A stretch of DNA of 16,419 nucleotides from a virus. A program made the translations under genes and the position numbers. The notes under the pieces are model-generated. The model was given only the letters and a program-made list of their open reading frames with translations. It was not told the DNA's origin and did no database searches. Positions 1 to 16,419 of the stretch are shown here, piece after piece; within the stretch, counting starts at the first letter, position 1; every line of letters starts with the position of its first letter. The stretch lies in UHGV virus genome UHGV-0393364; one strand, 5' to 3'.

Positions 1-183
1 GGCTATAACACCGCGTGGATAGAAACGCAGCTCGCTCACGTTGATAAGAACTCAATTCGTGGCACATACAACCATGCGCAATATCTGGATGGAAGGCGGG
101 AGATGCTTCAATGGTATGCCGACTATATGGATTCTCTCGAGCATGGCGGAAATGTGGTGCATATGGTGTTTGAAAAACACGCA
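1..183 (+). CDS. int: Tyrosine integrase, P4 family, C-terminal fragment (5' end outside window)
   Basis: Frame-1 translation from base 1 is open to TGA at 181-183: GYNTAWIETQLAHVDKNSIRGTYNHAQYLDGRREMLQWYADYMDSLEHGGNVVHMVFEKHA. This matches the remembered C-terminal tail of P4/CP4-57-type integrases (N-x-VR-x-AY ... L-x-ERR-x-M-x-QW-x-ADY-x-D), including the catalytic Tyr region. Not in the ORF track because it has no in-window start. Confidence 0.8.
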
Positions 184-329
184 TGAAACAACTGGACAAG
201 TATACAGAGGTTTACTAAAGTATAGGGGAGTAGATTGATAAAAACTCACAGAGGATTGCTATTTAACAGTTAGCCCTGGAGAAGGGCAATCGCTCTTTTA
301 TAAACGAAGGTGTATTGAGCCTTCTACGT

Positions 330-392
330 CGCTGACAAAGCGGAATGTTCTTTAACAGGCTTTGGCGCTGACAAAGCGCAATTGTTCTTTAA
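330..392. repeat. Two direct ~26-bp repeats, each containing a small hairpin (CGCT-GACAAA-GCG), in the int-alpA intergenic region
   Basis: cgctgacaaagcggaatgttctttaa at 330-355 and cgctgacaaagcgcaattgttctttaa at 366-392, differing at about 2 positions. Position suggests protein-binding sites (integrase arm-type or AlpA/regulator sites); function is inference. Confidence 0.7.
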
Positions 393-614
393 AACTACTG
401 GATGTCACGCCTAATAGCGTGATCCTGCCGAAATGCAGGGTAGCTCTACCCTTGTGGAGCGAACAAACCAAAACAATCTGACTATCTTTTATAAAAGACC
501 GCAATATGTTTTTCATATTGTGGTCTTTGGCGTATTCGACATTTGACGCAAATAAAACTCTCGCCATTCGTTGCAGGAGGGGGTTATTGCGTCATTAGTA
601 CAGGATATTAATAA

Positions 615-818
615 ATGGCTAATTACAATTCATTAATTCGTCTCTCTGAAGTTCAAAGGCGAACTGGTTATAGCAAAGCATGGATTTATCGTCTTATTAG
701 TCAGGGGAGGTTCCCTAAACAGGTAAAAATTGGAAGTCGGGCAATTGCTTTTGTTGAGTCTGAAATAGATGAATGGATTGAGAAGTGTATATTAGAATCT
801 AGAGACGAGGTGGCCTGA
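615..818 (+). CDS. alpA: AlpA-family phage transcriptional regulator / excision activator (small winged-HTH protein)
   Basis: 67-aa ORF MANYNSLIRLSEVQRRTGYSKAWIYRLISQGRFPKQVKIGSRAIAFVESEIDEWIEK...; the segment VQRRTGYSKAWIYRLISQGRFPK...G.RAIAF.ESEIDEWI is the typical AlpA/Phage_AlpA signature. Lies immediately downstream of the integrase, as in P4-like islands. Confidence 0.85.
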   Translation: MANYNSLIRLSEVQRRTGYSKAWIYRLISQGRFPKQVKIGSRAIAFVESEIDEWIEKCILESRDEVA

Positions 819-1249
819 TGGAAAAGAAAAACCGCCCATTACAGGCGGCTAATTCAGATATTCGTGTATCTGATGTTACGCCCCTTACAAAATCCCTTCA
901 AGCACCAAAGCGCACACCGAAAAAGCATCGTGCCAGAGTCTATATGCTGCGTACTGGTATAGAGGGATGGACAGAAAATGACATTCTTCGCTACTACCGT
1001 CTGTCTTCTGGTCGTAACTATGCAACAGAGTTAGAACGCCAGCTTGGAATCACTCTGGAGCGTATCGACGAAAAGAATCCTGATGGTATCGGAACACACC
1101 TTCGCTACCGTTTCTCCTGCCGTGGTGATGTTCTGAAAGTGATCACTCATATTAACCATCTTGCGAACATAAATGATCACAACGGACTTTCTCAGCAGGA
1201 AATTGCCGACATTCTGAAACTCTACCCGGACGCGTTTAACGCCGCCTAA
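818..1249 (+). CDS. Hypothetical protein, 143 aa (island-associated, function unknown)
   Basis: ATG at 818 overlaps the alpA stop (TGATG), indicating translational coupling; clean 143-codon frame. No motif I can assign. Confidence 0.7.
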   Translation: MEKKNRPLQAANSDIRVSDVTPLTKSLQAPKRTPKKHRARVYMLRTGIEGWTENDILRYYRLSSGRNYATELERQLGITLERIDEKNPDGIGTHLRYRFSCRGDVLKVITHINHLANINDHNGLSQQEIADILKLYPDAFNAA

Positions 1250-1261
1250 CGGAGACTGAAA

Positions 1262-2095
1262 ATGAACATCGAAAAAAGCAGATTAATTTCTGAGGCCGCC
1301 CCTCATCTGAACGCCTCTCTGGGCACAATTAACGGTAATGAATTTGCCGCAATTGTCCCGGTTATTCCTGGTCACATCGGTGGGCGTGAAACCAATATTG
1401 TTAGCGCAAAAGCGTTACACAAAGCGTTGGGCGTGGGAAAAGACTTCTCTACATGGATCACTGATCGCATCTCTGAATATGACTTCACCATTGGGCACGA
1501 TTACTCAGTCCATAAAACAATTTCCCCAAATTTGGGGAAAAGCCCGAATGGCACGGCTTACAGCAAGATTAAGCAGTCTGGCAGACCCGGCAAAGACTAT
1601 CTGTTAAGTGTCGGAATGGCGAAAGAGCTGGCAATGATCGAACGCAATGATCAGGGTCGCGCTATCCGTCGTTATTTCATCCAGTGCGAGGAAGAATTAC
1701 AGCGTAGCGTGCCTGAAATCGCCGCCCGCTATCGTCGCCAGCTAAAAGCCCGTATCAGTGCCGCAAACAACTTTAAGCCAATGTGCGATGCGCTGAATAT
1801 GGCCCGTGCCGAGCAGGGGAAAACGACGCAGCAACACCACTACACAAACGAGAGCAATATGATTTCTCGTATCGTTCTTGGAGGGCTAACTGCTAAGCAG
1901 TGGGCGCGGATAAATGGCTATTCTGGCGAACCTCGCGACCATATGAACGCAGAACAGCTTGAGCACCTCTCATATCTCGAAAGCACCAATATCACGTTAA
2001 TTGATATGGGCATGGAATATGAGCAGCGCAAAGGAGAACTCACCCGCCTGTCGCAACGCTGGCTCGCCAAGCGTCTGGAGGCGGTCCATGTTTAA
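1262..2095 (+). CDS. AntA/AntB-type antirepressor family protein, 277 aa
   Basis: GGAG 7 nt upstream of ATG 1262. Segment VGKDFSTWITDRISEYDF...DYLLSVGMAKELAMIERNDQGRAIRRYFIQCEE matches the remembered AntA antirepressor signature (VGKDF.TWI..RI..Y.F ... MAKELAM.ERN..GR.ARRYFI.CE). Confidence 0.8.
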   Translation: MNIEKSRLISEAAPHLNASLGTINGNEFAAIVPVIPGHIGGRETNIVSAKALHKALGVGKDFSTWITDRISEYDFTIGHDYSVHKTISPNLGKSPNGTAYSKIKQSGRPGKDYLLSVGMAKELAMIERNDQGRAIRRYFIQCEEELQRSVPEIAARYRRQLKARISAANNFKPMCDALNMARAEQGKTTQQHHYTNESNMISRIVLGGLTAKQWARINGYSGEPRDHMNAEQLEHLSYLESTNITLIDMGMEYEQRKGELTRLSQRWLAKRLEAVHV

Positions 2096-2270
2096 GCCGA
2101 CAGGAACACCACAACCTCAAAAACGCTACAAAGATGCCCACGGAGCACTCGTTACTGTCGAAAGCGTGTCTCACAACCGAGTGACGTTTTATCGCGACGG
2201 GTATCAATCGCCATGCGTACAACCGCTGGCGCGCTTCATGAAGGAGTTCGCGGAGGTTAACAAATGCTAA
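2088..2270 (+). CDS. Small hypothetical protein, 60 aa
   Basis: ATG at 2088 overlaps the stop of the upstream gene (ATGTTTAA); product [60 protein letters not shown]. Same-strand operon context; the ORF track shows a longer 2001-2270 frame whose 5' part overlaps the upstream gene. Confidence 0.45.
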   Translation: MFKPTGTPQPQKRYKDAHGALVTVESVSHNRVTFYRDGYQSPCVQPLARFMKEFAEVNKC

Positions 2271-3292
2271 CCGTCCAGAAGAAGATATTTTCACTGACTG
2301 CTATGTCGCAAAAATCCAGCAATATGACAGCAAAGTCTGGCATTAATACAGCAGATACAAGCAAAGCTTATCATTTTATGGTGGTAGGAGCGGATGCCTT
2401 AACTATGTCAGAAATTACGGTCGATGGTGTTAGCGTTGAGAAGGTCAGCGGCTGCGCCAGAGAATTTCTGGTCGTAGATGACCTGTTCTGCTCGCGTAGT
2501 GACTCCACAAAAATCTTCGTCCGCACGCGCGACGTTAACGAAATGAGCGCGATGTACTGTGCCTCTGGTTCTTCCAATAGTGAGTTTTCGGAGTCCATAA
2601 AAAAGAGCTTGCCGTTATGCGGCAACACGGTTTATGGTTATAAGGCACCTCATAAAACGGGTGCCGGGATTAGGACCCCGCAGGCAATCGAGGCGATACA
2701 TGACGCGCCAGCGTCTTTTTTTGTATCGGCGCACACGCACACCTTATCAATGGTGGGCTGTATGGGGCTGACTTCGGTCAGGCTGGTTTCCTTGATTGCC
2801 AGTAGTCCTAACCCTGTACAGTCCACCGCCAGCGAGCTTAGGACCTCCGGCGGTGGCTATAAACCATCAATCAAGGAGGCTGCCACATGCTGGCTACTAC
2901 CCCTACCCAAAAACCGCAATTTATCTGGATTATCGCCGCAGTTCGCCGCGATTGCCCGACAATTACCGCCAAAATTCATCATATTGCTGCCGAGTCTGAA
3001 CGCGATGCTCGCCGTTCTCTGGTGCGCGATCACATCTGCTTTTTTGCTGGTCGTATCCGCATGGAGGTGGCACATGATTAAAACCTACGATGTGCATATG
3101 GATCCCCTCGAACGCACAAGCCAGATCATCACACTGACAGAAGTGATTAACGACATTCTGGTGAGCAACTCTCCCTCACGAGACGAAAGACTGAAGGCGT
3201 TACTCGCGATATTGGATCTCGCCGTTCGTGACGTTCATTTCCTGCTGGAAGGTGGACAAATGCCATGCAAAACGGGGGCAACCAATGAATAA
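2264..3292 (+). CDS. Questionable long ORF (342 codons); the 5' part may be a real S/T/C-rich protein or an open-frame artefact, and the last 72 codons are a separately supported small gene
   Basis: GGAGG 7 nt upstream of ATG 2264 and a coupled start (AAATGCTAA) argue for a real start. However the frame reads through the strongly supported out-of-frame gene 2887-3081, and the 5' product is compositionally odd (very Ser/Thr/Cys-rich). Treated as uncertain. Confidence 0.25.
2887..3081 (+). CDS. Small protein, 64 aa, possibly Icd-like (host cell division inhibitor-like)
   Basis: Strong SD AAGGAGG 7 nt upstream of ATG 2887; product [64 protein letters not shown]. The pattern FIW..AAVRR ... RDH..FFAGR resembles my recollection of Icd-like small proteins of enterobacterial prophages; that assignment is from memory only. 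Confidence 0.6.
   Translation: MLATTPTQKPQFIWIIAAVRRDCPTITAKIHHIAAESERDARRSLVRDHICFFAGRIRMEVAHD
3074..3292 (+). CDS. Small hypothetical protein, 72 aa
   Basis: GGAGG at 3064-3068, 5 nt upstream of ATG 3074, which overlaps the stop of 2887-3081 (ATGATTAA); product [72 protein letters not shown] has balanced composition. Confidence 0.6.
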   Translation: MIKTYDVHMDPLERTSQIITLTEVINDILVSNSPSRDERLKALLAILDLAVRDVHFLLEGGQMPCKTGATNE

Positions 3293-3479
3293 CTCAATTA
3301 ATACCCCTCGCCTTACGTCCGCACTTCAATTAATCGAGCAAGCAGCGGCTGTCCTGGTTGCTGTCAGTCTTTCGGCTGAAGAAATGGACGCTGCTGATGT
3401 CGTGGATGCGATTAAAGCGTGCTCATCTTTGGTTAACGATGCCCGTGCCGAGCTGGTAATTCTTGGGGGTGAAAAATGA
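3285..3479 (+). CDS. Small hypothetical protein, 64 aa
   Basis: ATG 3285 (internal Met of track ORF 3228-3479) overlaps the stop of the upstream gene (ATGAATAA); G-rich SD-like stretch upstream; product [64 protein letters not shown]. Confidence 0.55.
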   Translation: MNNSINTPRLTSALQLIEQAAAVLVAVSLSAEEMDAADVVDAIKACSSLVNDARAELVILGGEK

Positions 3480-3739
3480 ATATCAACTTAATTTATCGTC
3501 ATCCGTGTGAGCTGGAAATTGAATCGTTGCTGGGGCGCGAAGAGCCATATCCAGACACATTCACTCCCGCAGATTGCGCGACTGAACGGCTTACCAGAGC
3601 GCGCACAGGTCTGGTTCATGTGATGAATGAGATTGTTCCCTCGGTGGGAGGGGAACAGGCGACAGTAATCAATAGCTGGCTACAAAAAGTTACCTCCCTG
3701 ATAGATATCGGTTTAATCGATGTGGAGAGTGCGAAATGA
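3476..3739 (+). CDS. Small hypothetical protein, 87 aa
   Basis: ATGA start/stop overlap with the upstream gene; GGGGGT 5 nt upstream of ATG 3476. Confidence 0.6.
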   Translation: MNINLIYRHPCELEIESLLGREEPYPDTFTPADCATERLTRARTGLVHVMNEIVPSVGGEQATVINSWLQKVTSLIDIGLIDVESAK

Positions 3740-3957
3740 CCAACATCCAGCTCATTGAAGCGCAATGTCGCATCGAACAGGTTCAGACTGTTTTAGGGTT
3801 CTGGCTTGAAGGGGCCAGCCCCAGCAACAGAGACAAGTTAATGATTGGCGCGGTTATGTCACTGCTCAATGGCGTACCAGAAGCTATTCAGGAAGCGGAC
3901 GAATTGTTGGGCAAATATGAGTTACAGAATCATTCAGGCGAGGCGAAACATGAATAA
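3736..3957 (+). CDS. Small hypothetical protein, 73 aa
   Basis: ATGA overlap with the upstream gene; GGAGAG SD upstream of ATG 3736. Confidence 0.6.
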   Translation: MTNIQLIEAQCRIEQVQTVLGFWLEGASPSNRDKLMIGAVMSLLNGVPEAIQEADELLGKYELQNHSGEAKHE

Positions 3958-4552
3958 TTTCTTAACTTTCCATGCAGAAGCAACGCCTGACGGCGTAAAC
4001 ATCATGTACCGCAGCAACGATGGCATGACAGAACGCGTTGAGACCGTCTCATATATTGATGCCGTAAATCGTCTGGATGCCGGGGATTATGACGATAAAC
4101 CAGATGAAGGCATGTTTATACATCTCGCTATTGCCAGTGGCGGCAACCAGGGATATTTCGATTACACATCACAGCATCACGTGATTATGTGGCGCTGGCT
4201 GATAGCAACAGCATTCATCAATGAAATGAGAAAGGAAAACGGCACTGTCAGCATCATTGATGATACTGGCAATCCTTCCGAAGTGGCTGTTTATTCCAAC
4301 GGCATCGTCGCCATGCCGCTGTATCCAGTAGCAGAGCGCCTCGCTATGGCAAACAACATTGAGGGCGCGATGATAGAACGTTTTGGCATCGAGTCTGGCA
4401 CAGAACGCGCCATCATTTTCTACAGAGCCATGATGGATGTGGAACAAGGAGCACTGACTCCATTTGGTCGTGAAACGCTTGCTGAACTTCACAACAGCTT
4501 TATAGCTGAACTGAATGAAAACGGCATGCCAGCGGAACCAGTGACGCACTGA
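3950..4552 (+). CDS. Hypothetical protein, 200 aa
   Basis: Start chosen at ATG 3950 (MNNFLTFHAEATPDGVNIMYRSNDG...), which overlaps the stop of the upstream gene (ATGAATAA); the track's longer 3845 start would lie inside the upstream gene in another frame. Confidence 0.65.
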   Translation: MNNFLTFHAEATPDGVNIMYRSNDGMTERVETVSYIDAVNRLDAGDYDDKPDEGMFIHLAIASGGNQGYFDYTSQHHVIMWRWLIATAFINEMRKENGTVSIIDDTGNPSEVAVYSNGIVAMPLYPVAERLAMANNIEGAMIERFGIESGTERAIIFYRAMMDVEQGALTPFGRETLAELHNSFIAELNENGMPAEPVTH

Positions 4553-4562
4553 GGATGGAGCC

Positions 4563-4904
4563 ATGATTACTAAAAATTTCCGACTGAATGCGCTGGCAAA
4601 TAAGTATGCGTCAGCACTGTATAACCACATTACCTCCACCAGCGGCGGGGACTATTTCATGGTTGATGCGGACGGCGAGGCCGTCCGTGTGGAAATCGTC
4701 AATGGAGTAAAAGGCGTTCGCAGCCTGATCGATAGCTACACACTGGCAGCCATGAAAGTGTTCTACCCGCAGTGGGAAACCGTGGGGATAGAGCTTCTTG
4801 ATCGTTGCGTCACTAAGGACGGATTGACTGACGTCGGGCGTGAGATATGGCAAAGCATGGTTAATGACATGGGCGCAACTGTAGCGGGAGGTTCTCATGC
4901 GTGA
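4563..4904 (+). CDS. Hypothetical protein, 113 aa
   Basis: GAGGA 7 nt upstream of ATG 4563; product MITKNFRLNALANKYASALYNHITSTSGGDYFMVDADGEAVRVEIVNG... Confidence 0.65.
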   Translation: MITKNFRLNALANKYASALYNHITSTSGGDYFMVDADGEAVRVEIVNGVKGVRSLIDSYTLAAMKVFYPQWETVGIELLDRCVTKDGLTDVGREIWQSMVNDMGATVAGGSHA

Positions 4905-5268
4905 AAATGCAGAAATGGCGCTTAGCTCCGCAATCGGAGAGCAGGTGGCAAAGATTGCTGGCGCTGTGTGGATTCATAACCTTCATTCTACTGGTGAAGA
5001 GAAAATGGCAATTCAGACGCCAGAGGGACGCACCATTACTACATCTCTGAAGCCGTCAGATGTTTGTGATCTGATTTGCGCATTCATGTACCCAGCAATG
5101 AGGACTGTCCACGGCGATAAGTGGAAACTTGCGACAACCGCTGAATTTGATATGTGGCTAAACAATGATGGCATGCTGACTGATTACGGAATAACCAAGT
5201 GGCAGATGCTGGTTAGCCATATCGCAAACGCTATAGACCACGTGGGGTACGGTGATGCGAAACATTGA
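4897..5268 (+). CDS. Hypothetical protein, 123 aa
   Basis: GGGAGG 8 nt upstream of ATG 4897, which overlaps the upstream stop (ATGCGTGA). Confidence 0.65.
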   Translation: MRENAEMALSSAIGEQVAKIAGAVWIHNLHSTGEEKMAIQTPEGRTITTSLKPSDVCDLICAFMYPAMRTVHGDKWKLATTAEFDMWLNNDGMLTDYGITKWQMLVSHIANAIDHVGYGDAKH

Positions 5269-8011
5269 TCTTATCCGTCAGGTTATCAGTGCGTCTGAAA
5301 ACAACTGGCCTCATGTGCTGGGCTGCCTGAACATAAATGTCCCTGACTCTCCGCGCCGTCATGCTCCCTGCCCTGCATGTGGGGGCAAAGATCGATTCCG
5401 GTTCGATGACAACGGGCGCGGTAGCTTCATCTGTAATCAGTGCGGCGCTGGTGATGGGCTGGATTTAATTAAACGCGTAAATAACTGCGACACAACAGAG
5501 GCGGCGCTTCTTGCCGCTGATGTTCTGGGTATTGATTACCGGACAACGGAAACACCAGAAGCCACCAGCCAGAAACGGGAACAACTGGAAACCGAGCGCC
5601 AGCGACGCGAACAGGAGCGCCTGAAAAGGGCAGAGAAGGACGAACAACAAAGACGGGATACGTTTTCCCGTCAGTTTGATGACATGCGCAGAAAGGCTGT
5701 AAACGGTAAATCTGATTATCTGGTTGCGAAAGGGGTAGGTGATTTTACATTCCCCGTGTTGCCCGATGGATCTCTGTTGCTGGCGCTGGTGGATAAATCC
5801 GGCGCAGTCACAGCAGCACAGACTATTACCTCACATGGTGAAAAAAGACTCCTGACAGGTTCAGCAAAACGGGGAGCATATCACGCCATAAACGCACCAG
5901 AAACAACACAGAGCATCTTAATCGCAGAAGGGCTGGCAACGGCATTATCTGCCCATTTAATTCGTCCAGAGGCGCTGACAGTGGCGGCGATTGATGCCGG
6001 GAACCTGTTATATGTCGCCCAGGTACTGCGGGATAAATATCCTTCAGCACAAATCATCATTGCTGCGGATAACGACCACAGCGAAGGAAGACAAAACACG
6101 GGGAGAATAGCAGCAGAAAAAGCAGCTTTATCTGTTTCTGGATGGGTGGCATTACCCCCGACAGATCACAAAGCAGACTGGAATGATTACCACCAAAAAC
6201 ACGGCATTAAATGCGCCACAGAAGCGTTCAATAAGTCAATGTACCAACCACAGGGTAATGGCGTGAAACAGGAGCCACAGACCATTGAGGGAAGCGATTT
6301 TAAGGTTATGGATACCGACCCACTGAAACCAAGAATAGAAAGCCGCGAGGATGGTATTTATTGGGTATCTCCGAGAGCTGACAGCCAGAGTGGAGAAATC
6401 ATCAATAACGAAAGCTGGTTATGTTCTCCGTTAAGCGTTATCGGTACTGGCAGAGACGATAAAGACCAGTATCTCATTCTTCGCTGGCTGTCGTTTGGTT
6501 CTGAAACGCCGACAACCGCTGCCATTCCACTGGCTGATATTGGTGAACGTGAAGGATGGCGCACACTTAAAGCTGGTGGGGTAAATGTCACGACCAAAAG
6601 CAGCCTCAGAGCAATACTGGCAGACTGGCTACAACGCAGTGGCTCTCGTGAATTGTGGCGTGTTGCTCATGCCACTGGCTGGCAATGCGGAGCGTACATC
6701 ATGCCTGATGGGGAAATCATCGGAACACCTGAAAATCCTGTGCTGTTCAGCGGGAGAAGCTCAGCCGCAGCCGGATATACCGTCTCAGGGAGCGCGAAAA
6801 GCTGGCGTGATAACGTGGCGCGTCTGGCCTTTGGTAACTATTCAATGATGACCGGGATCGGCGCAGCACTGGCAGCGCCATTGATTGGGCTGGTGGGCGC
6901 TGACGGGTTCGGCATTCATTTCTATGAGCAGTCGAGCGCGGGTAAGACCACCACGGCAAACGTGGCGAGCAGCTTATACGGCAACCCTGATTTACTGCGG
7001 CTGACGTGGTACGGAACCGCGCTGGGGCTGGCAAATGAGGCCGCCGCCCACAATGACGGATTAATGCCGCTTGATGAAGTTGGTCAGGGCGCTGATCCTG
7101 TCAGCGTTTCACAGTCTGCCTATGCGTTATTTAACGGTGTAGGGAAACTGCAAGGCGCTAAAGATGGTGGAAACCGGGATCTAAAACGCTGGCGTACAGT
7201 GGCAATCAGCACCGGAGAAATGGATTTAGAAACATTTATCGCTACTTCCGGGCGAAAAACCAAAGCCGGGCAACTGGTGCGACTGCTGAATATTCCGTTG
7301 AGTAAAGCAGTACGCTTTCACGATTACCAGAACGGAAAACAGCACGCAGACGCACTGAAAGACGCTTACCAGCATCACCACGGCGCAGCCGGGCGTGAGT
7401 GGATTAAATGGCTGGCAGACCACCAGCAACAGGCTATTAAAACTGTTCGTGACTGCGAAAGCAGATGGAGAAGCCTGATCCCATCCGATTATGGTGAGCA
7501 GGTTCACCGTGTAGCCGCGCGATTTGCCATTCTGGAGGCAGCATTGCTGTTAGGCGAAGTTGTAACAGGCTGGGATGCTCAGACATGCCGTGATGCGATA
7601 CAGCACAGCTATAACGCATGGTTGCGCGAGTTCGGCACAGGTAACAAAGAACATCAGCAGATTATTGAACAAACGGAGGCATTTCTTAATGCCTATGGGC
7701 TTAGCCGTTTTGCACCATTTCCATACAGCCCGGCAGATTTGCCCATCAAAGATTTAGCCGGATACCGTCAGCGTGGAGAACATGACGAAAGCCCAATGAT
7801 TTTCTACACATTCCCGGCCACATTTGAAAAGGAGATCGCATGTGGTTTCAACGCAAAACAGTTTGCTGAAGTGTTGAAAAAAGCCGGGATGCTAACCCCA
7901 CCAAACAGCGGTCGTGGATACCAAAGAAAATCACCACGTATTCAGGGACGACAAATAAACGTTTATGTACTCAATTACCAGCCAGGAGATTATAACTCAT
8001 CTGAAGAATGA
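5255..8011 (+). CDS. P4-alpha-like DNA primase / replication initiator (zinc ribbon, charged linker, TOPRIM, C-terminal NTPase-like domain)
   Basis: N-terminal C-x2-C...C-x2-C zinc ribbon (HAPCPACGGKDRFRFDDNGRGSFICNQCGAGDG); highly charged Q/E/R-rich segment (QKREQLETERQRREQERLKRAEKDEQQRRD); TOPRIM-like segment with conserved Glu (ILIAEGLATALS) and DxD (IIIAADNDHSEG); C-terminal region with a P-loop-like motif (EQSSAGKTTTANV). Start is GTG 5252 or ATG 5255 and overlaps the 3' end of the upstream gene. Followed within 25 bp by an iteron array. Confidence 0.9.
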   Translation: MRNIDLIRQVISASENNWPHVLGCLNINVPDSPRRHAPCPACGGKDRFRFDDNGRGSFICNQCGAGDGLDLIKRVNNCDTTEAALLAADVLGIDYRTTETPEATSQKREQLETERQRREQERLKRAEKDEQQRRDTFSRQFDDMRRKAVNGKSDYLVAKGVGDFTFPVLPDGSLLLALVDKSGAVTAAQTITSHGEKRLLTGSAKRGAYHAINAPETTQSILIAEGLATALSAHLIRPEALTVAAIDAGNLLYVAQVLRDKYPSAQIIIAADNDHSEGRQNTGRIAAEKAALSVSGWVALPPTDHKADWNDYHQKHGIKCATEAFNKSMYQPQGNGVKQEPQTIEGSDFKVMDTDPLKPRIESREDGIYWVSPRADSQSGEIINNESWLCSPLSVIGTGRDDKDQYLILRWLSFGSETPTTAAIPLADIGEREGWRTLKAGGVNVTTKSSLRAILADWLQRSGSRELWRVAHATGWQCGAYIMPDGEIIGTPENPVLFSGRSSAAAGYTVSGSAKSWRDNVARLAFGNYSMMTGIGAALAAPLIGLVGADGFGIHFYEQSSAGKTTTANVASSLYGNPDLLRLTWYGTALGLANEAAAHNDGLMPLDEVGQGADPVSVSQSAYALFNGVGKLQGAKDGGNRDLKRWRTVAISTGEMDLETFIATSGRKTKAGQLVRLLNIPLSKAVRFHDYQNGKQHADALKDAYQHHHGAAGREWIKWLADHQQQAIKTVRDCESRWRSLIPSDYGEQVHRVAARFAILEAALLLGEVVTGWDAQTCRDAIQHSYNAWLREFGTGNKEHQQIIEQTEAFLNAYGLSRFAPFPYSPADLPIKDLAGYRQRGEHDESPMIFYTFPATFEKEIACGFNAKQFAEVLKKAGMLTPPNSGRGYQRKSPRIQGRQINVYVLNYQPGDYNSSEE

Positions 8012-8036
8012 GCTTCTTCATGTGCGTAGAAAAGGT

Positions 8037-8147
8037 GTTGGTTCAGTTGGTTCAGTTGGTTCAATTTGCAAAGAGTATTGTTTTGTAAGGATTTTATTCT
8101 TTTTATTGAACCAACACTGAACCAACAACACGGTATTTTGAACCAAC
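8037..8147. repeat. Origin-like iteron array: 3 tandem GTTGGTTCA, a 43-bp AT-rich spacer, then 3 inverted copies (TGAACCAAC) at helical spacing
   Basis: GTTGGTTCA at 8037-8045, 8046-8054, 8055-8063; AT-rich 8064-8106; TGAACCAAC at 8107-8115, 8118-8126, 8139-8147. Sits immediately 3' of the primase gene, as for satellite/plasmid origins bound by their initiator. Confidence 0.8.
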
Positions 8148-14672: not shown

Positions 14673-15650
14673 ATGATTGCCGCAAAGCCTCATAAGGACT
14701 ATCACGAATTGCTAGGATTGCTACTTGAACGTGGCATGATTATCAATGATCGAAATCGTGCGATACGTAAGCTGTCGCAGGTTGGATATTATCGATTGTC
14801 AGGTTTTTGGTACCCTTCAAGAATTATTGCGACAACAGATAAAGGTCTTTCGTACAGAACAGACCGATTTCTTGCTGGTACCAGTTTCGAGAAGACGTAC
14901 GATCTATATCTTTTTGACAAAAAACTGCGTCTTTTGATGATTGATGCTATCGAAAGAATAGAGATTCATGTTCGTTCAGTCATCGCGCATGAGGTTGGTC
15001 GCAATGATCCACTTGCCTACATGTCATCAAAATACATTAATCCAAAATTCTCATCTGCCTTCGAGCATTGGGTGTATAAGCAAAAAGTAAAATTAGACGA
15101 AAGCAGAGATGACTGTATTGAATGGCATCGAAGCCAAGGCAAGGAGATTCCATTTTGGGTGGCGGTGGAGACATGGGATTTTGGTCAGATGTCTAAATAT
15201 TATGCGATGCTTAATGGTCATATGCAGGGGAAAATTATACGTCGTTTTGGCATTGATAATAAGCAGACATTTGCAAAATGGTTGAAGTGCCTTAATCTCA
15301 TAAGGAATCGTTGCGCTCACCATTCCAGAATATGGAATAGAAAGCATCCCCGAGTTCCAGTACCGGATAATGAATACTTTGACGGACTTAATCTCCATCC
15401 AGAGAGTTGCGAGAGGATTTTTAGCGCGATCTGTATTATCTGGTACTTAGTTAAACGACTTGGTCCGGGATCAACATGGCTTCGGCAAATTGCAGACCTT
15501 ATTGACTCTAAACCAAATGTTCCCGGATGTGGATATGATTCAATGGGTTTACCTGCTAAAGGATTCCCACGAGAGAGATTCTCTCAGGACTTAGGTTTTG
15601 TTATCGCCGACAACGACCCTGTAGCTGAAGGGCGGAAAGGGAGCGATTGA
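14673..15650 (+). CDS. Abortive infection protein, Abi_2 family (AbiD/AbiF-like), 325 aa
   Basis: KPHKDYHELLGLLLERGMII...YYRLSGFWYP, FEKTYDLYLFDKKLRLLMIDAIERIEIHVRSVIAHEV, FWVAVETWDFGQMSKYY and LKCLNLIRNRCAHHSRIWNRK match the remembered Abi_2 family pattern, notably the IRN-x-CAHH-x-R-x-WN motif. Start set at ATG 14673 (MIAAKPHKDY...); the track's GTG 14628 start would add a hydrophobic 15-aa extension. Confidence 0.85.
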   Translation: MIAAKPHKDYHELLGLLLERGMIINDRNRAIRKLSQVGYYRLSGFWYPSRIIATTDKGLSYRTDRFLAGTSFEKTYDLYLFDKKLRLLMIDAIERIEIHVRSVIAHEVGRNDPLAYMSSKYINPKFSSAFEHWVYKQKVKLDESRDDCIEWHRSQGKEIPFWVAVETWDFGQMSKYYAMLNGHMQGKIIRRFGIDNKQTFAKWLKCLNLIRNRCAHHSRIWNRKHPRVPVPDNEYFDGLNLHPESCERIFSAICIIWYLVKRLGPGSTWLRQIADLIDSKPNVPGCGYDSMGLPAKGFPRERFSQDLGFVIADNDPVAEGRKGSD

Positions 15651-15679
15651 GCGATAAATATCATTTATACACTGATCAA

Positions 15680-16108
15680 TTACTGAAGCAGCGTATTGAT
15701 TCTTTTAATATTGTTACCCTGACGCTTCCACGCGCTGTAAATGTCTTTATCCCACGCTTTACCAGCTTTTGTTTGGTAGCCTGCTTCATTGAGCCGTTCA
15801 GCTATCACACGCCCATTATCAAATCCCTGTCGGATGGTATCGGCAATGATCTTTATAACTGCCGTTTCGTTATATGGCTTTGGTGGGATGTTCGGCTTTC
15901 CGGCAATAAGCGATGCTGCGGCTTTTTCCATGCGCTCCACCAGCCCAAGCATTCGTGAATCAATAGACTTTTCCGGCTGTCCCAGCTTCATGCGAATCGC
16001 ATCAACAAGCCAGGAGGTTTTATCCCCTCCAGAAGCGAGAACAGACCGATTAAACTCATCCTGCAATTCAGATGGGATGCGGAACGCGATCAGATTAGAT
16101 TTGCTCAT
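15680..16108 (-). CDS. Putative DNA-binding regulator: N-terminal ribbon-helix-helix-like domain plus C-terminal resolvase-type HTH-like segment, about 142 aa
   Basis: N-terminus MSKSNLIAFRIPSELQDEFNRSVLASGGDKTSWLVDAIRMKL looks like a RHH (strand, then two helices); C-terminal GRVIAERLNEAGYQTKAGKAWDKDIYSAWKRQ resembles recombinase/resolvase-type HTH segments. Start taken at the second Met (16108); track start is 16120. Convergent with the Abi gene; iteron cluster 2 and an operator-like inverted repeat lie upstream. Confidence 0.7.
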   Translation of the reverse strand: MSKSNLIAFRIPSELQDEFNRSVLASGGDKTSWLVDAIRMKLGQPEKSIDSRMLGLVERMEKAAASLIAGKPNIPPKPYNETAVIKIIADTIRQGFDNGRVIAERLNEAGYQTKAGKAWDKDIYSAWKRQGNNIKRINTLLQ

Positions 16109-16222
16109 TGCAAAGACCATATCAGTGAGTAATATCCATACAGTATACCACTGTATAACACTGTTATACGCTCAAATATCAGTCAGAAAATAACGGACCA
16201 ATCACAAATCTATCGCTGTGTT

Positions 16223-16343
16223 GTTGGTTCAGAGCTGGGCTGTGTTGGTTCAAAATGAGTTGATGTTGGTTCAATATTTTAGAAAAAACACAATAAAAAC
16301 AACGCTCTTTACAAATTGAACCAACTGAACCAACTGAACCAAC
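16223..16343. repeat. Second iteron array, a mirror-image (inverted) copy of the 8037-8147 origin-like site
   Basis: GTTGGTTCA at 16223-16231, 16244-16252, 16265-16273 (21-bp spacing); AT-rich 16274-16316; TGAACCAAC in tandem at 16317-16325, 16326-16334, 16335-16343. Its reverse complement has the same architecture as cluster 1, and flanking spacer sequence is also similar (ctctttgcaaattgaacc vs ctctttacaaattgaacc). Confidence 0.8.
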
Positions 16344-16419
16344 ACCTTTTTGCTTATCTATATAATCTGACCGTAGATTTTGAGGGACTTTAGTAGACGT
16401 CAAAAGACGAACGGGGCTT

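Follow-up and report, generated by a model that had tools for sequence, protein, structure and literature searches.

We propose that the cluster of 9-bp repeats at positions 8037-8147 of UHGV-0393364, a viral DNA of 16,419 nt analysed here over its full length (the window), is module A of a two-module origin, and its sequence features make it probable that this cluster is the gene-proximal half of an origin that depends on the neighbouring Pri-Rep protein, in a phage satellite (PICI) of the EcCIMP1 type. The element itself is of a known kind, a PICI origin, in what appears to be an undescribed arrangement, with two modules split around cargo genes.

Module A has an outer arm of three tandem GTTGGTTCA iterons, located by repeat search on the plus strand at 8037-8063 (8037-8045, 8046-8054 and 8055-8063; period 9 bp), the first of which is 26 bp from the stop codon of pri-rep. 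Its inner arm, on the minus strand at 8107-8147, consists of three inverted copies, seen as the reverse complement TGAACCAAC at 8107-8115, 8118-8126 and 8139-8147, whose starts are 11 and 21 bp apart. Between the arms lies an AT-rich core of 43 bp (8064-8106), the presumed unwinding element, which begins with the conserved ATTTGCAAAG and has a GC content of 20.9% versus 47.1% in the whole window. The initial annotation, which had described three tandem and three inverted 9-mers around an AT-rich core, proved exact base for base. Across the window there are 12 exact copies of GTTGGTTCA, where about 0.13 would be expected for a random 9-mer (both strands, 16.4 kb), and 18 matches with at most one mismatch against 3.6 ± 1.9 in shuffled sequences, a count reached in none of 200 shuffles. 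A literature search with the 9-mer returned matches to unrelated primers and oligonucleotides only.

Six further perfect copies of GTTGGTTCA, absent from the initial annotation, form a second cluster, module B, at 16223-16343. Its inner arm (16223-16273, plus strand) carries three iterons at 16223, 16244 and 16265, spaced 21 and 21 bp apart, and is followed by an AT-rich core of 43 bp and 20.9% GC (16274-16316) that ends with the conserved CTTTACAAAT, and by an outer arm of three tandem inverted iterons with a period of 9 bp (16317-16343, minus strand). When read on the minus strand, this cluster aligns with the first through the 9-mers and the AT-rich spacer (ATTTG[C/T]AAAGAG..TTGTTTT). Since the alignment extends through the spacer, we take cluster 2 for a paralogous, inverted copy of the entire module rather than for a word that recurred by chance. 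Both modules have three opposed iterons on each side of the AT-rich region, PICI/SaPI-type origins having at least two. The 10-11 bp adjoining each tandem triplet (8064-8075, ATTTGCAAAG; 16306-16316, CTTTACAAAT) are kept across genera, and the remainder of the core is variable.

The pri-rep gene (5252-8011, plus strand) encodes 919 aa from a GTG codon, and its RefSeq homologues begin at the ATG at 5255, giving 918 aa. Pfam domains comprise Zn_Ribbon_Prim (residues 35-70), Toprim_3 (222-319) and DUF927 (366-644), with no Pfam match in the last 275 residues. P4 alpha aligns with residues 8-362 only, at 33% identity, and the DUF927 part matches the SaPI "pathogenicity island protein" 8tch and the SCCmec helicase Cch (5dgk), a similarity to SaPI that is remote at the sequence level (E = 1e-11) and limited to the helicase. 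Judged by these matches, Pri-Rep is a fusion of a P4-alpha-type primase with a SaPI-Rep-type helicase-initiator. The description of this protein as a P4-alpha-like primase in the initial annotation therefore holds for the N-terminal 360 aa, and fails for the helicase/initiator part, which is a DUF927 protein of the SaPI-Rep/Cch type.

The C-terminal domain of Pri-Rep (aa 790-919; 7619-8008, plus strand) was modelled with AlphaFold using a 46-sequence alignment, and a single-sequence model of aa 761-919 was discarded (pLDDT 39). The model predicts a winged helix with a recognition-type helix at aa 868-877 (AKQFAEVLKK), followed by a β-hairpin wing whose tip corresponds to aa 891-897 (QRKSPRI); the codons for aa 886-901 (SGRGYQRKSPRIQGRQ) lie at 7907-7954 on the plus strand. 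This domain scored 10.1 (106 residues) against the SaPI replication initiator-helicase 8tch, 8.9 against the oriT-binding wHTH protein TcpK and 8.5 against SCCmec Cch, compared with about 4-5.6 against generic winged-helix domains, and Foldseek matched it to TcpK with a probability of 0.97-0.99. The modelled C-terminal fold matches that of the SaPI Rep initiator, and Pri-Rep is predicted to be an initiator-helicase with a C-terminal winged-helix domain for iterons, as in PICI/SaPI-type systems. A profile search with the domain against PDB sequences gave chance matches only (E about 2). Alignment to the P4 alpha C-terminus with hhalign gave a probability of 0.3%, so we claim no homology to the origin-binding domain of alpha.

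To compare relatives, we fetched 80 loci with Pri-Rep homologues from 100% down to ~30% identity, including 10-kb flanks. A repeated 7-9-mer directly follows the stop codon at 34 of the 40 loci with a full-length homologue. The architecture is constant across lineages and a single word occupies every position within a locus, and the word itself changes by lineage, examples being GTTGGTTCA, TGTTGTCTC, GTCGGTTCA, TGTGGTTCA, GTAACCCGT, ATAACCCGT, AGTGTGTCA, GGTGTAACA, GTGGGAACA, GGTCGGTTT and TTATCCCA. Among 31 aligned relatives the word covaries with residues 891-897 independently of overall relatedness, a comparison made for Pri-Rep alone, such that other island genes could in principle covary as well. 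All GTTGGTTCA loci, at 52-100% identity to the window protein, have the wing QRKS-PR[IV], including a Morganella locus (L023) with ~55% identity overall, 73% in the last 69 aa, and the wing QRKS-PRV. Four loci of ~80% identity (L008, L010, L011 and L012) carry TGTTGTCTC and the wing QGRV--RE[DG]; two of 60-74% identity (L017 and L041) carry GTCGGTTCA and the wing RKT; and two of 55-75% identity (L015 and L055) carry GTAACCCGT with the wings KRKALKRI and KKKGLKKI. The model places these residues at the tip of the β-hairpin after the recognition-type helix. The initial annotation had suggested looking for iterons that vary together with the primase sequence, and the iteron word does change together with the Pri-Rep wing tip. 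Based on this covariation, which is strong indirect evidence, and on a modelled C-terminal fold like that of the SaPI Rep initiator, Pri-Rep very probably binds the GTTGGTTCA repeats. The same two observations support the earlier view of an initiator-type origin module with an AT-rich core 3' of a replication gene.

The further claim that 8037-8147 is a compact, complete origin is not supported, since it is one of two paralogous modules that are adjacent in 23 relatives and 8.2 kb apart in the window. In these relatives, 9-13 iterons form one contiguous block of about 280-330 bp. The left module comprises 2-3 tandem copies pointing rightward, an AT-rich core and three leftward copies spaced 11 and 21; a CCTGGCTGG[C/G]AG box stands between the modules; and the right module comprises three copies spaced 21, a spacer and three leftward tandem copies, followed by ACAC..TTTT.CTTAT.TATA. 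The first cluster of the window corresponds to the left module plus the box (8177-8185), and the second to the right module with its characteristic end. In the Morganella locus, module B likewise has three plus-strand and three minus-strand iterons and lies directly beside module A. Across the 23 relatives with adjacent modules, the iteron word changes together in both.

Split forms keep the orientation of the contiguous form, with the tandem triplets outermost. The modules are 8.5 kb apart in EcCIMP1, 8.2, 7.1 and 6.2 kb apart in three E. coli islands at two attachment sites (L001, L085 and L086), 6.8 kb in Cedecea (L026), 5.9 kb in Lonsdalea (L013) and 4.7 kb in Serratia (L053). A history of simple insertion was considered for the split and is not fully consistent with the position of the gene g146, which lies beyond module B in contiguous forms and inside it in split forms; this switch of side indicates that the split is not explained by one simple insertion. 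The number of modules also varies, as a Buttiauxella locus (L033) has a single six-iteron module that is apparently its whole origin, suggesting that module A may be self-sufficient, and module B is reduced in another locus (L007). Many relatives with a contiguous origin have a GC-rich spacer in module B, so module B does not act as an unwinding element in every case. Near-identical islands can differ by one helical turn in the spacing of the inner arm, as that of module A in EcCIMP1 (L087; reverse complement, 9530-9580) has spacings of 21/21 and a repeated AACACGGTATTTTGAACCAAC unit, whereas that of the window has 11/21.

Two boxes flank module A as an inverted pair, CCAGCCAGG within the last codons of pri-rep (7978-7986) and its inverted partner CCTGGCTGG (8177-8185), the central box that lies between modules A and B in relatives with contiguous origins. 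In most relatives CCAGCCAG lies at most ~35 bp from the stop codon, being located past it in three (L030, L033 and L043), and CTGGCTGG is found again at +150 to +170 in several iteron classes. As a matter of speculation, the pair could be a priming or host-factor site.

Comparison of module B between islands points to selection on its iterons. Between the window and Cedecea, without any indel, iteron positions are identical at 54/54 sites versus 53/97 elsewhere in the module (p = 5e-11), and between the window and EcCIMP1 at 54/54 versus 63/98 (p = 2.5e-8). Judged by this pattern of substitution, the module B iterons are under purifying selection and the module is not a relic in decay. Perfect copies, 6+6 of them, are kept in each of the five E. 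coli Pri-Rep islands that we inspected. Gene conversion between the two modules as the source of the perfect iterons was rejected, as A and B do not have the same inter-iteron spacers.

A different replication system is found in L083 and L084, two sister islands at yicC/dinD in E. coli, namely a DUF5906 (alpha-type) replicase with its own ACCTGTACCAC iterons in two clusters ~1 kb apart (10693-10790 and 11803-11905 in L083; 10696-10790 and 11806-11910 in L084) that are separated by two small genes. Both islands nevertheless have, at the far end of their cargo, a perfect GTTGGTTCA module B (18870-18990 and 17765-17885, respectively) without a cognate Pri-Rep or module A. The cargo that they have in common with the window starts at ~8194-8197, just past the 8177-8185 box, and these sequences show module B moving with cargo. 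Their module B copies are 95-98% identical to that of the window and so may be recent, which makes them uninformative on selection.

The window's island is present, at least in part, in about 1,770 of 5,426 complete E. coli genomes, the best match being an island after tRNA-Thr beside proA. The gene order there is tyrosine integrase, AlpA, AntA/B antirepressor, Ash, small genes, a 919-aa "TOPRIM and DUF927" protein, DUF2824, P22 gp7/gp20/gp16-like ejection proteins, Abi_2, g146 (146 aa, minus strand) and PerC. Positions 1-186 of the window are the 3' end of the integrase gene, the attachment site being tRNA-Thr/proA in L001 and L087, and 615-818, downstream of int, matches PF05930 Phage_AlpA (E = 7e-20). 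From alpA through the ejection-protein genes, every annotated gene is on the plus strand (rightward), and an origin module lies directly 3' of pri-rep. Capsid, tail, terminase and lysis genes are absent, and 8774-13432 (plus strand) encodes DUF2824 and P22 gp7-, gp20- and gp16-like ejection proteins, which are virion components. On those features of a Gram-negative PICI (as defined by Fillol-Salom et al. 2018) and a PICI-type origin that can be read from sequence, the window would be classed as both, with the caveat that it encodes virion ejection proteins.

The closest experimental system is EcCIMP1, the PICI of E. coli MP1, which is induced and transferred by the P22-like phage Kapi1 and was reported without mention of an origin or iterons (PMC11773190). 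Positions 1-10066 of the window are 98% identical to EcCIMP1, and both have the tRNA-Thr/proA attachment site, the gene order and the 6+6 split arrangement of GTTGGTTCA. EcCIMP1 differs in its cargo, which diverges beyond ~10.07 kb, and in lacking the Abi and g146 genes. Part of the window cargo matches Kapi1 DNA. In Serratia (L053) the slot between the modules (13002-16122) encodes Dit-like, baseplate-hub-like and GpV-spike-like proteins, and in Cedecea (L026; 13629-18009) a P4 Beta-like protein and one with an SLT domain; in each lineage examined (window, EcCIMP1, Cedecea and Serratia), the slot contains genes for DNA delivery by the virion or for cell-wall degradation.

Several further features of the island were observed. 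Inside the "ash family protein" ORF (plus strand) there are Rfam matches at gathering score to isrK (2645-2721, 63 bits) and C4 antisense RNA (2746-2833, 80 bits), which suggest antisense-RNA immunity of the P1/P7/P4 style in this PICI. At the start of the cargo after the origin box, two TACGA-N5-TCGTA palindromes (8201-8215 and 8258-8272, 57 bp apart) look like operator sites. The g146 gene (15680-16120, minus strand) has no family match and its product resembles a ribbon-helix-helix protein at the N-terminus; upstream of it, 16138-16170 contains repeated CTGTATAAC/CTGTTATAC, where relatives have GTAAGACAGTGTAAGACAG. g146 probably moves along with the cargo and encodes a DNA-binding protein that regulates its own expression. 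The last ~50 bases of the window (16365-16419) match, in reverse complement, the sequence immediately 5' of the integrase gene of the island itself (L001 4866-4916). They join the right end of the island at a 6-bp microhomology (ATCTGA), and PerC is missing from the window. This junction (16370) occurs in none of the complete E. coli genomes searched and may mark the breakpoint of an inversion or rearrangement, or be an artefact of assembly.

Origins of Gram-negative PICIs such as EcCICFT073 also lie directly 3' of a fused pri-rep in an int-alpA-...-pri-rep island, and in EcCICFT073 a fragment with pri-rep and ori allows a plasmid to replicate (Fillol-Salom et al. 2018, PMC6092414). However, the origin in that study is one block beside the gene, whereas the window's family has two modules with four iteron sets and a central CTGGCTGG box. 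The GTTGGTTCA word is absent from the text and supplements of Fillol-Salom et al. 2018, and in the searchable literature, with the exception of Fig. 2a of that paper, we found neither a second iteron cluster at a distance nor an origin of two modules described for any PICI. SaPI Reps recognise iterons via the winged helix of their C-terminal domain, and the SaPI iterons directly follow rep and flank an AT-rich region, one half of them on either side, with opposite orientations (PMC9371898). The iterons of SaPIbov1, SaPI1 and SaPI5 are 5-6 nt long, in contrast to 9 nt in the window (PMC9371898; PDB 8tch), and SaPI origins are single contiguous blocks of 6-12 iterons in contrast to two modules. 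Unlike in SaPIs, the primase of the window is a P4-alpha-like TOPRIM protein.

The likeness to P4 is of another kind. P4 alpha has a homologous N-terminal zinc-ribbon/TOPRIM primase; however, it combines Zn ribbon, TOPRIM, D5_N, DUF5906 (SF3 helicase) and Pox_D5, of which Pri-Rep shares the Zn ribbon and TOPRIM only. The P4 type I repeat, which the initial annotation had given as TGTTCACC, is correct according to NC_001609, and it differs from GTTGGTTCA, which agrees with the proposal of a specificity distinct from that of P4. P4 also resembles the window in that its initiator-binding repeat occurs in two clusters set apart from each other, one of them next to the 3' end of the replication gene: crr (4291-4590) directly follows alpha, and ori (~9310-9413) is 4.7 kb away (NC_001609 annotation). 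However, crr consists of two 120-bp direct repeats, whereas the modules of the window are inverted paralogues. Because the helicase, the C-terminal domain and the repeat all differ, the window is not a P4-type replicon, and since similarity to P4 alpha is limited to the N-terminal 360 aa, the closest system is the PICI/SaPI origin and not the P4 origin.

Under the two-module reading, induction by a helper phage would lead the island to make Pri-Rep, each subunit of which may read one GTTGGTTCA 9-mer through its C-terminal winged-helix domain, with the wing tip QRKSPRI (891-897) setting specificity. The six sites of a module (3+3, pointing inward around the 43-bp core) would assemble the DUF927 MCM-like helicase, as for SaPI Rep, after which the core would melt and the fused TOPRIM primase would make the first primers. 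Pri-Rep would also bind module B, either as a second helicase-loading site or as a cooperating partner similar to P4 crr, with cargo genes between the modules in the window's lineage. Binding, melting, priming and cooperation between modules are steps that we infer.

The adjacency of the modules in 23 relatives, with one word changing in both, weighs against module A alone being a complete compact origin and cluster 2 a redundant second origin or a by-product of recombination. The same applies to the perfect conservation of module B iterons and spacing where other positions diverge, both within E. coli and between genera, and to the 6+6 copies in five of five E. coli Pri-Rep islands. We therefore regard a stand-alone module A as unlikely, even though it has the published minimum of at least two opposed iterons per side of an AT-rich region, pri-rep together with the proximal ori supported replication in EcCICFT073, the Buttiauxella locus has one module only, and module B travels with cargo by recombination in L083 and L084.

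It is improbable that the 9-mers are Pri-Rep sites serving mainly for control, be it autoregulation or termination, handcuffing copy control or control of the cargo operon, and such a role would add to that of an origin and not replace it. Two separated clusters of the same iteron are the classic handcuffing substrate in iteron plasmids, and module A does lie between pri-rep and the cargo genes. However, a promoter/terminator scan found no promoter-like site in 7900-8800 and no terminator-like site in or beside module A, and a 43-bp core of 21% GC between inward-pointing sites is of the origin type, in a layout whose homologues function in SaPIs and EcCICFT073. The inverted repeats of module A can form a cruciform or hairpin, as control might use (single-strand fold z = -6.3), but so strong a fold is a trivial outcome of inverted repeats and gives no evidence for an RNA or hairpin function; Rfam has no match at either iteron cluster. 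Recognition by another protein, with the repeats as a pac site for a helper or island terminase small subunit or as sites for the RHH-like g146, is highly improbable, given that EcCIMP1 lacks g146 and still has module B, that g146 is preceded by its own, different repeated words, that the island has no terminase gene, and that the iteron word follows the Pri-Rep wing against overall phylogeny. These points outweigh the facts that module B adjoins g146 in the window, L026 and L013 and moves with cargo, and that some phage pac sites contain repeated boxes.

For the proposed two-module origin bound by Pri-Rep, the meaning of the split can be read in two ways. In P4, the alpha protein is reported to loop ori and crr together. 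We suggest only tentatively that the origin here is physically split, with its modules meeting by similar protein-mediated looping over 5-8.5 kb, or that a cargo-exchange slot follows the CTGGCTGG box with the modules as recombination anchors. Such a slot would hold helper-specific DNA-delivery genes, namely those for ejection in E. coli, Dit/hub/spike in Serratia, and SLT and P4 Beta-like proteins in Cedecea. If either were true, origin architecture and cargo modularity would be mechanistically coupled; if the split has no functional consequence, what is seen is no more than the normal origin of an already known PICI.

Virulence and defence genes are moved by PICIs, which are abundant satellites and owe the efficiency of their transfer to replication. 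The origin of this family is larger than the single block described so far, comprising two modules and a conserved central box. At least 10 iteron words align with a 7-residue wing tip of Pri-Rep, a specificity rule that would allow origin/initiator compatibility between co-resident islands to be predicted. Islands of the EcCIMP1 type have the split form. EcCIMP1 itself can be studied experimentally with its known helper, Kapi1, and the candidate roles of the distal cluster, as a second origin, a crr-like enhancer or a copy-control element, could be tested there genetically.
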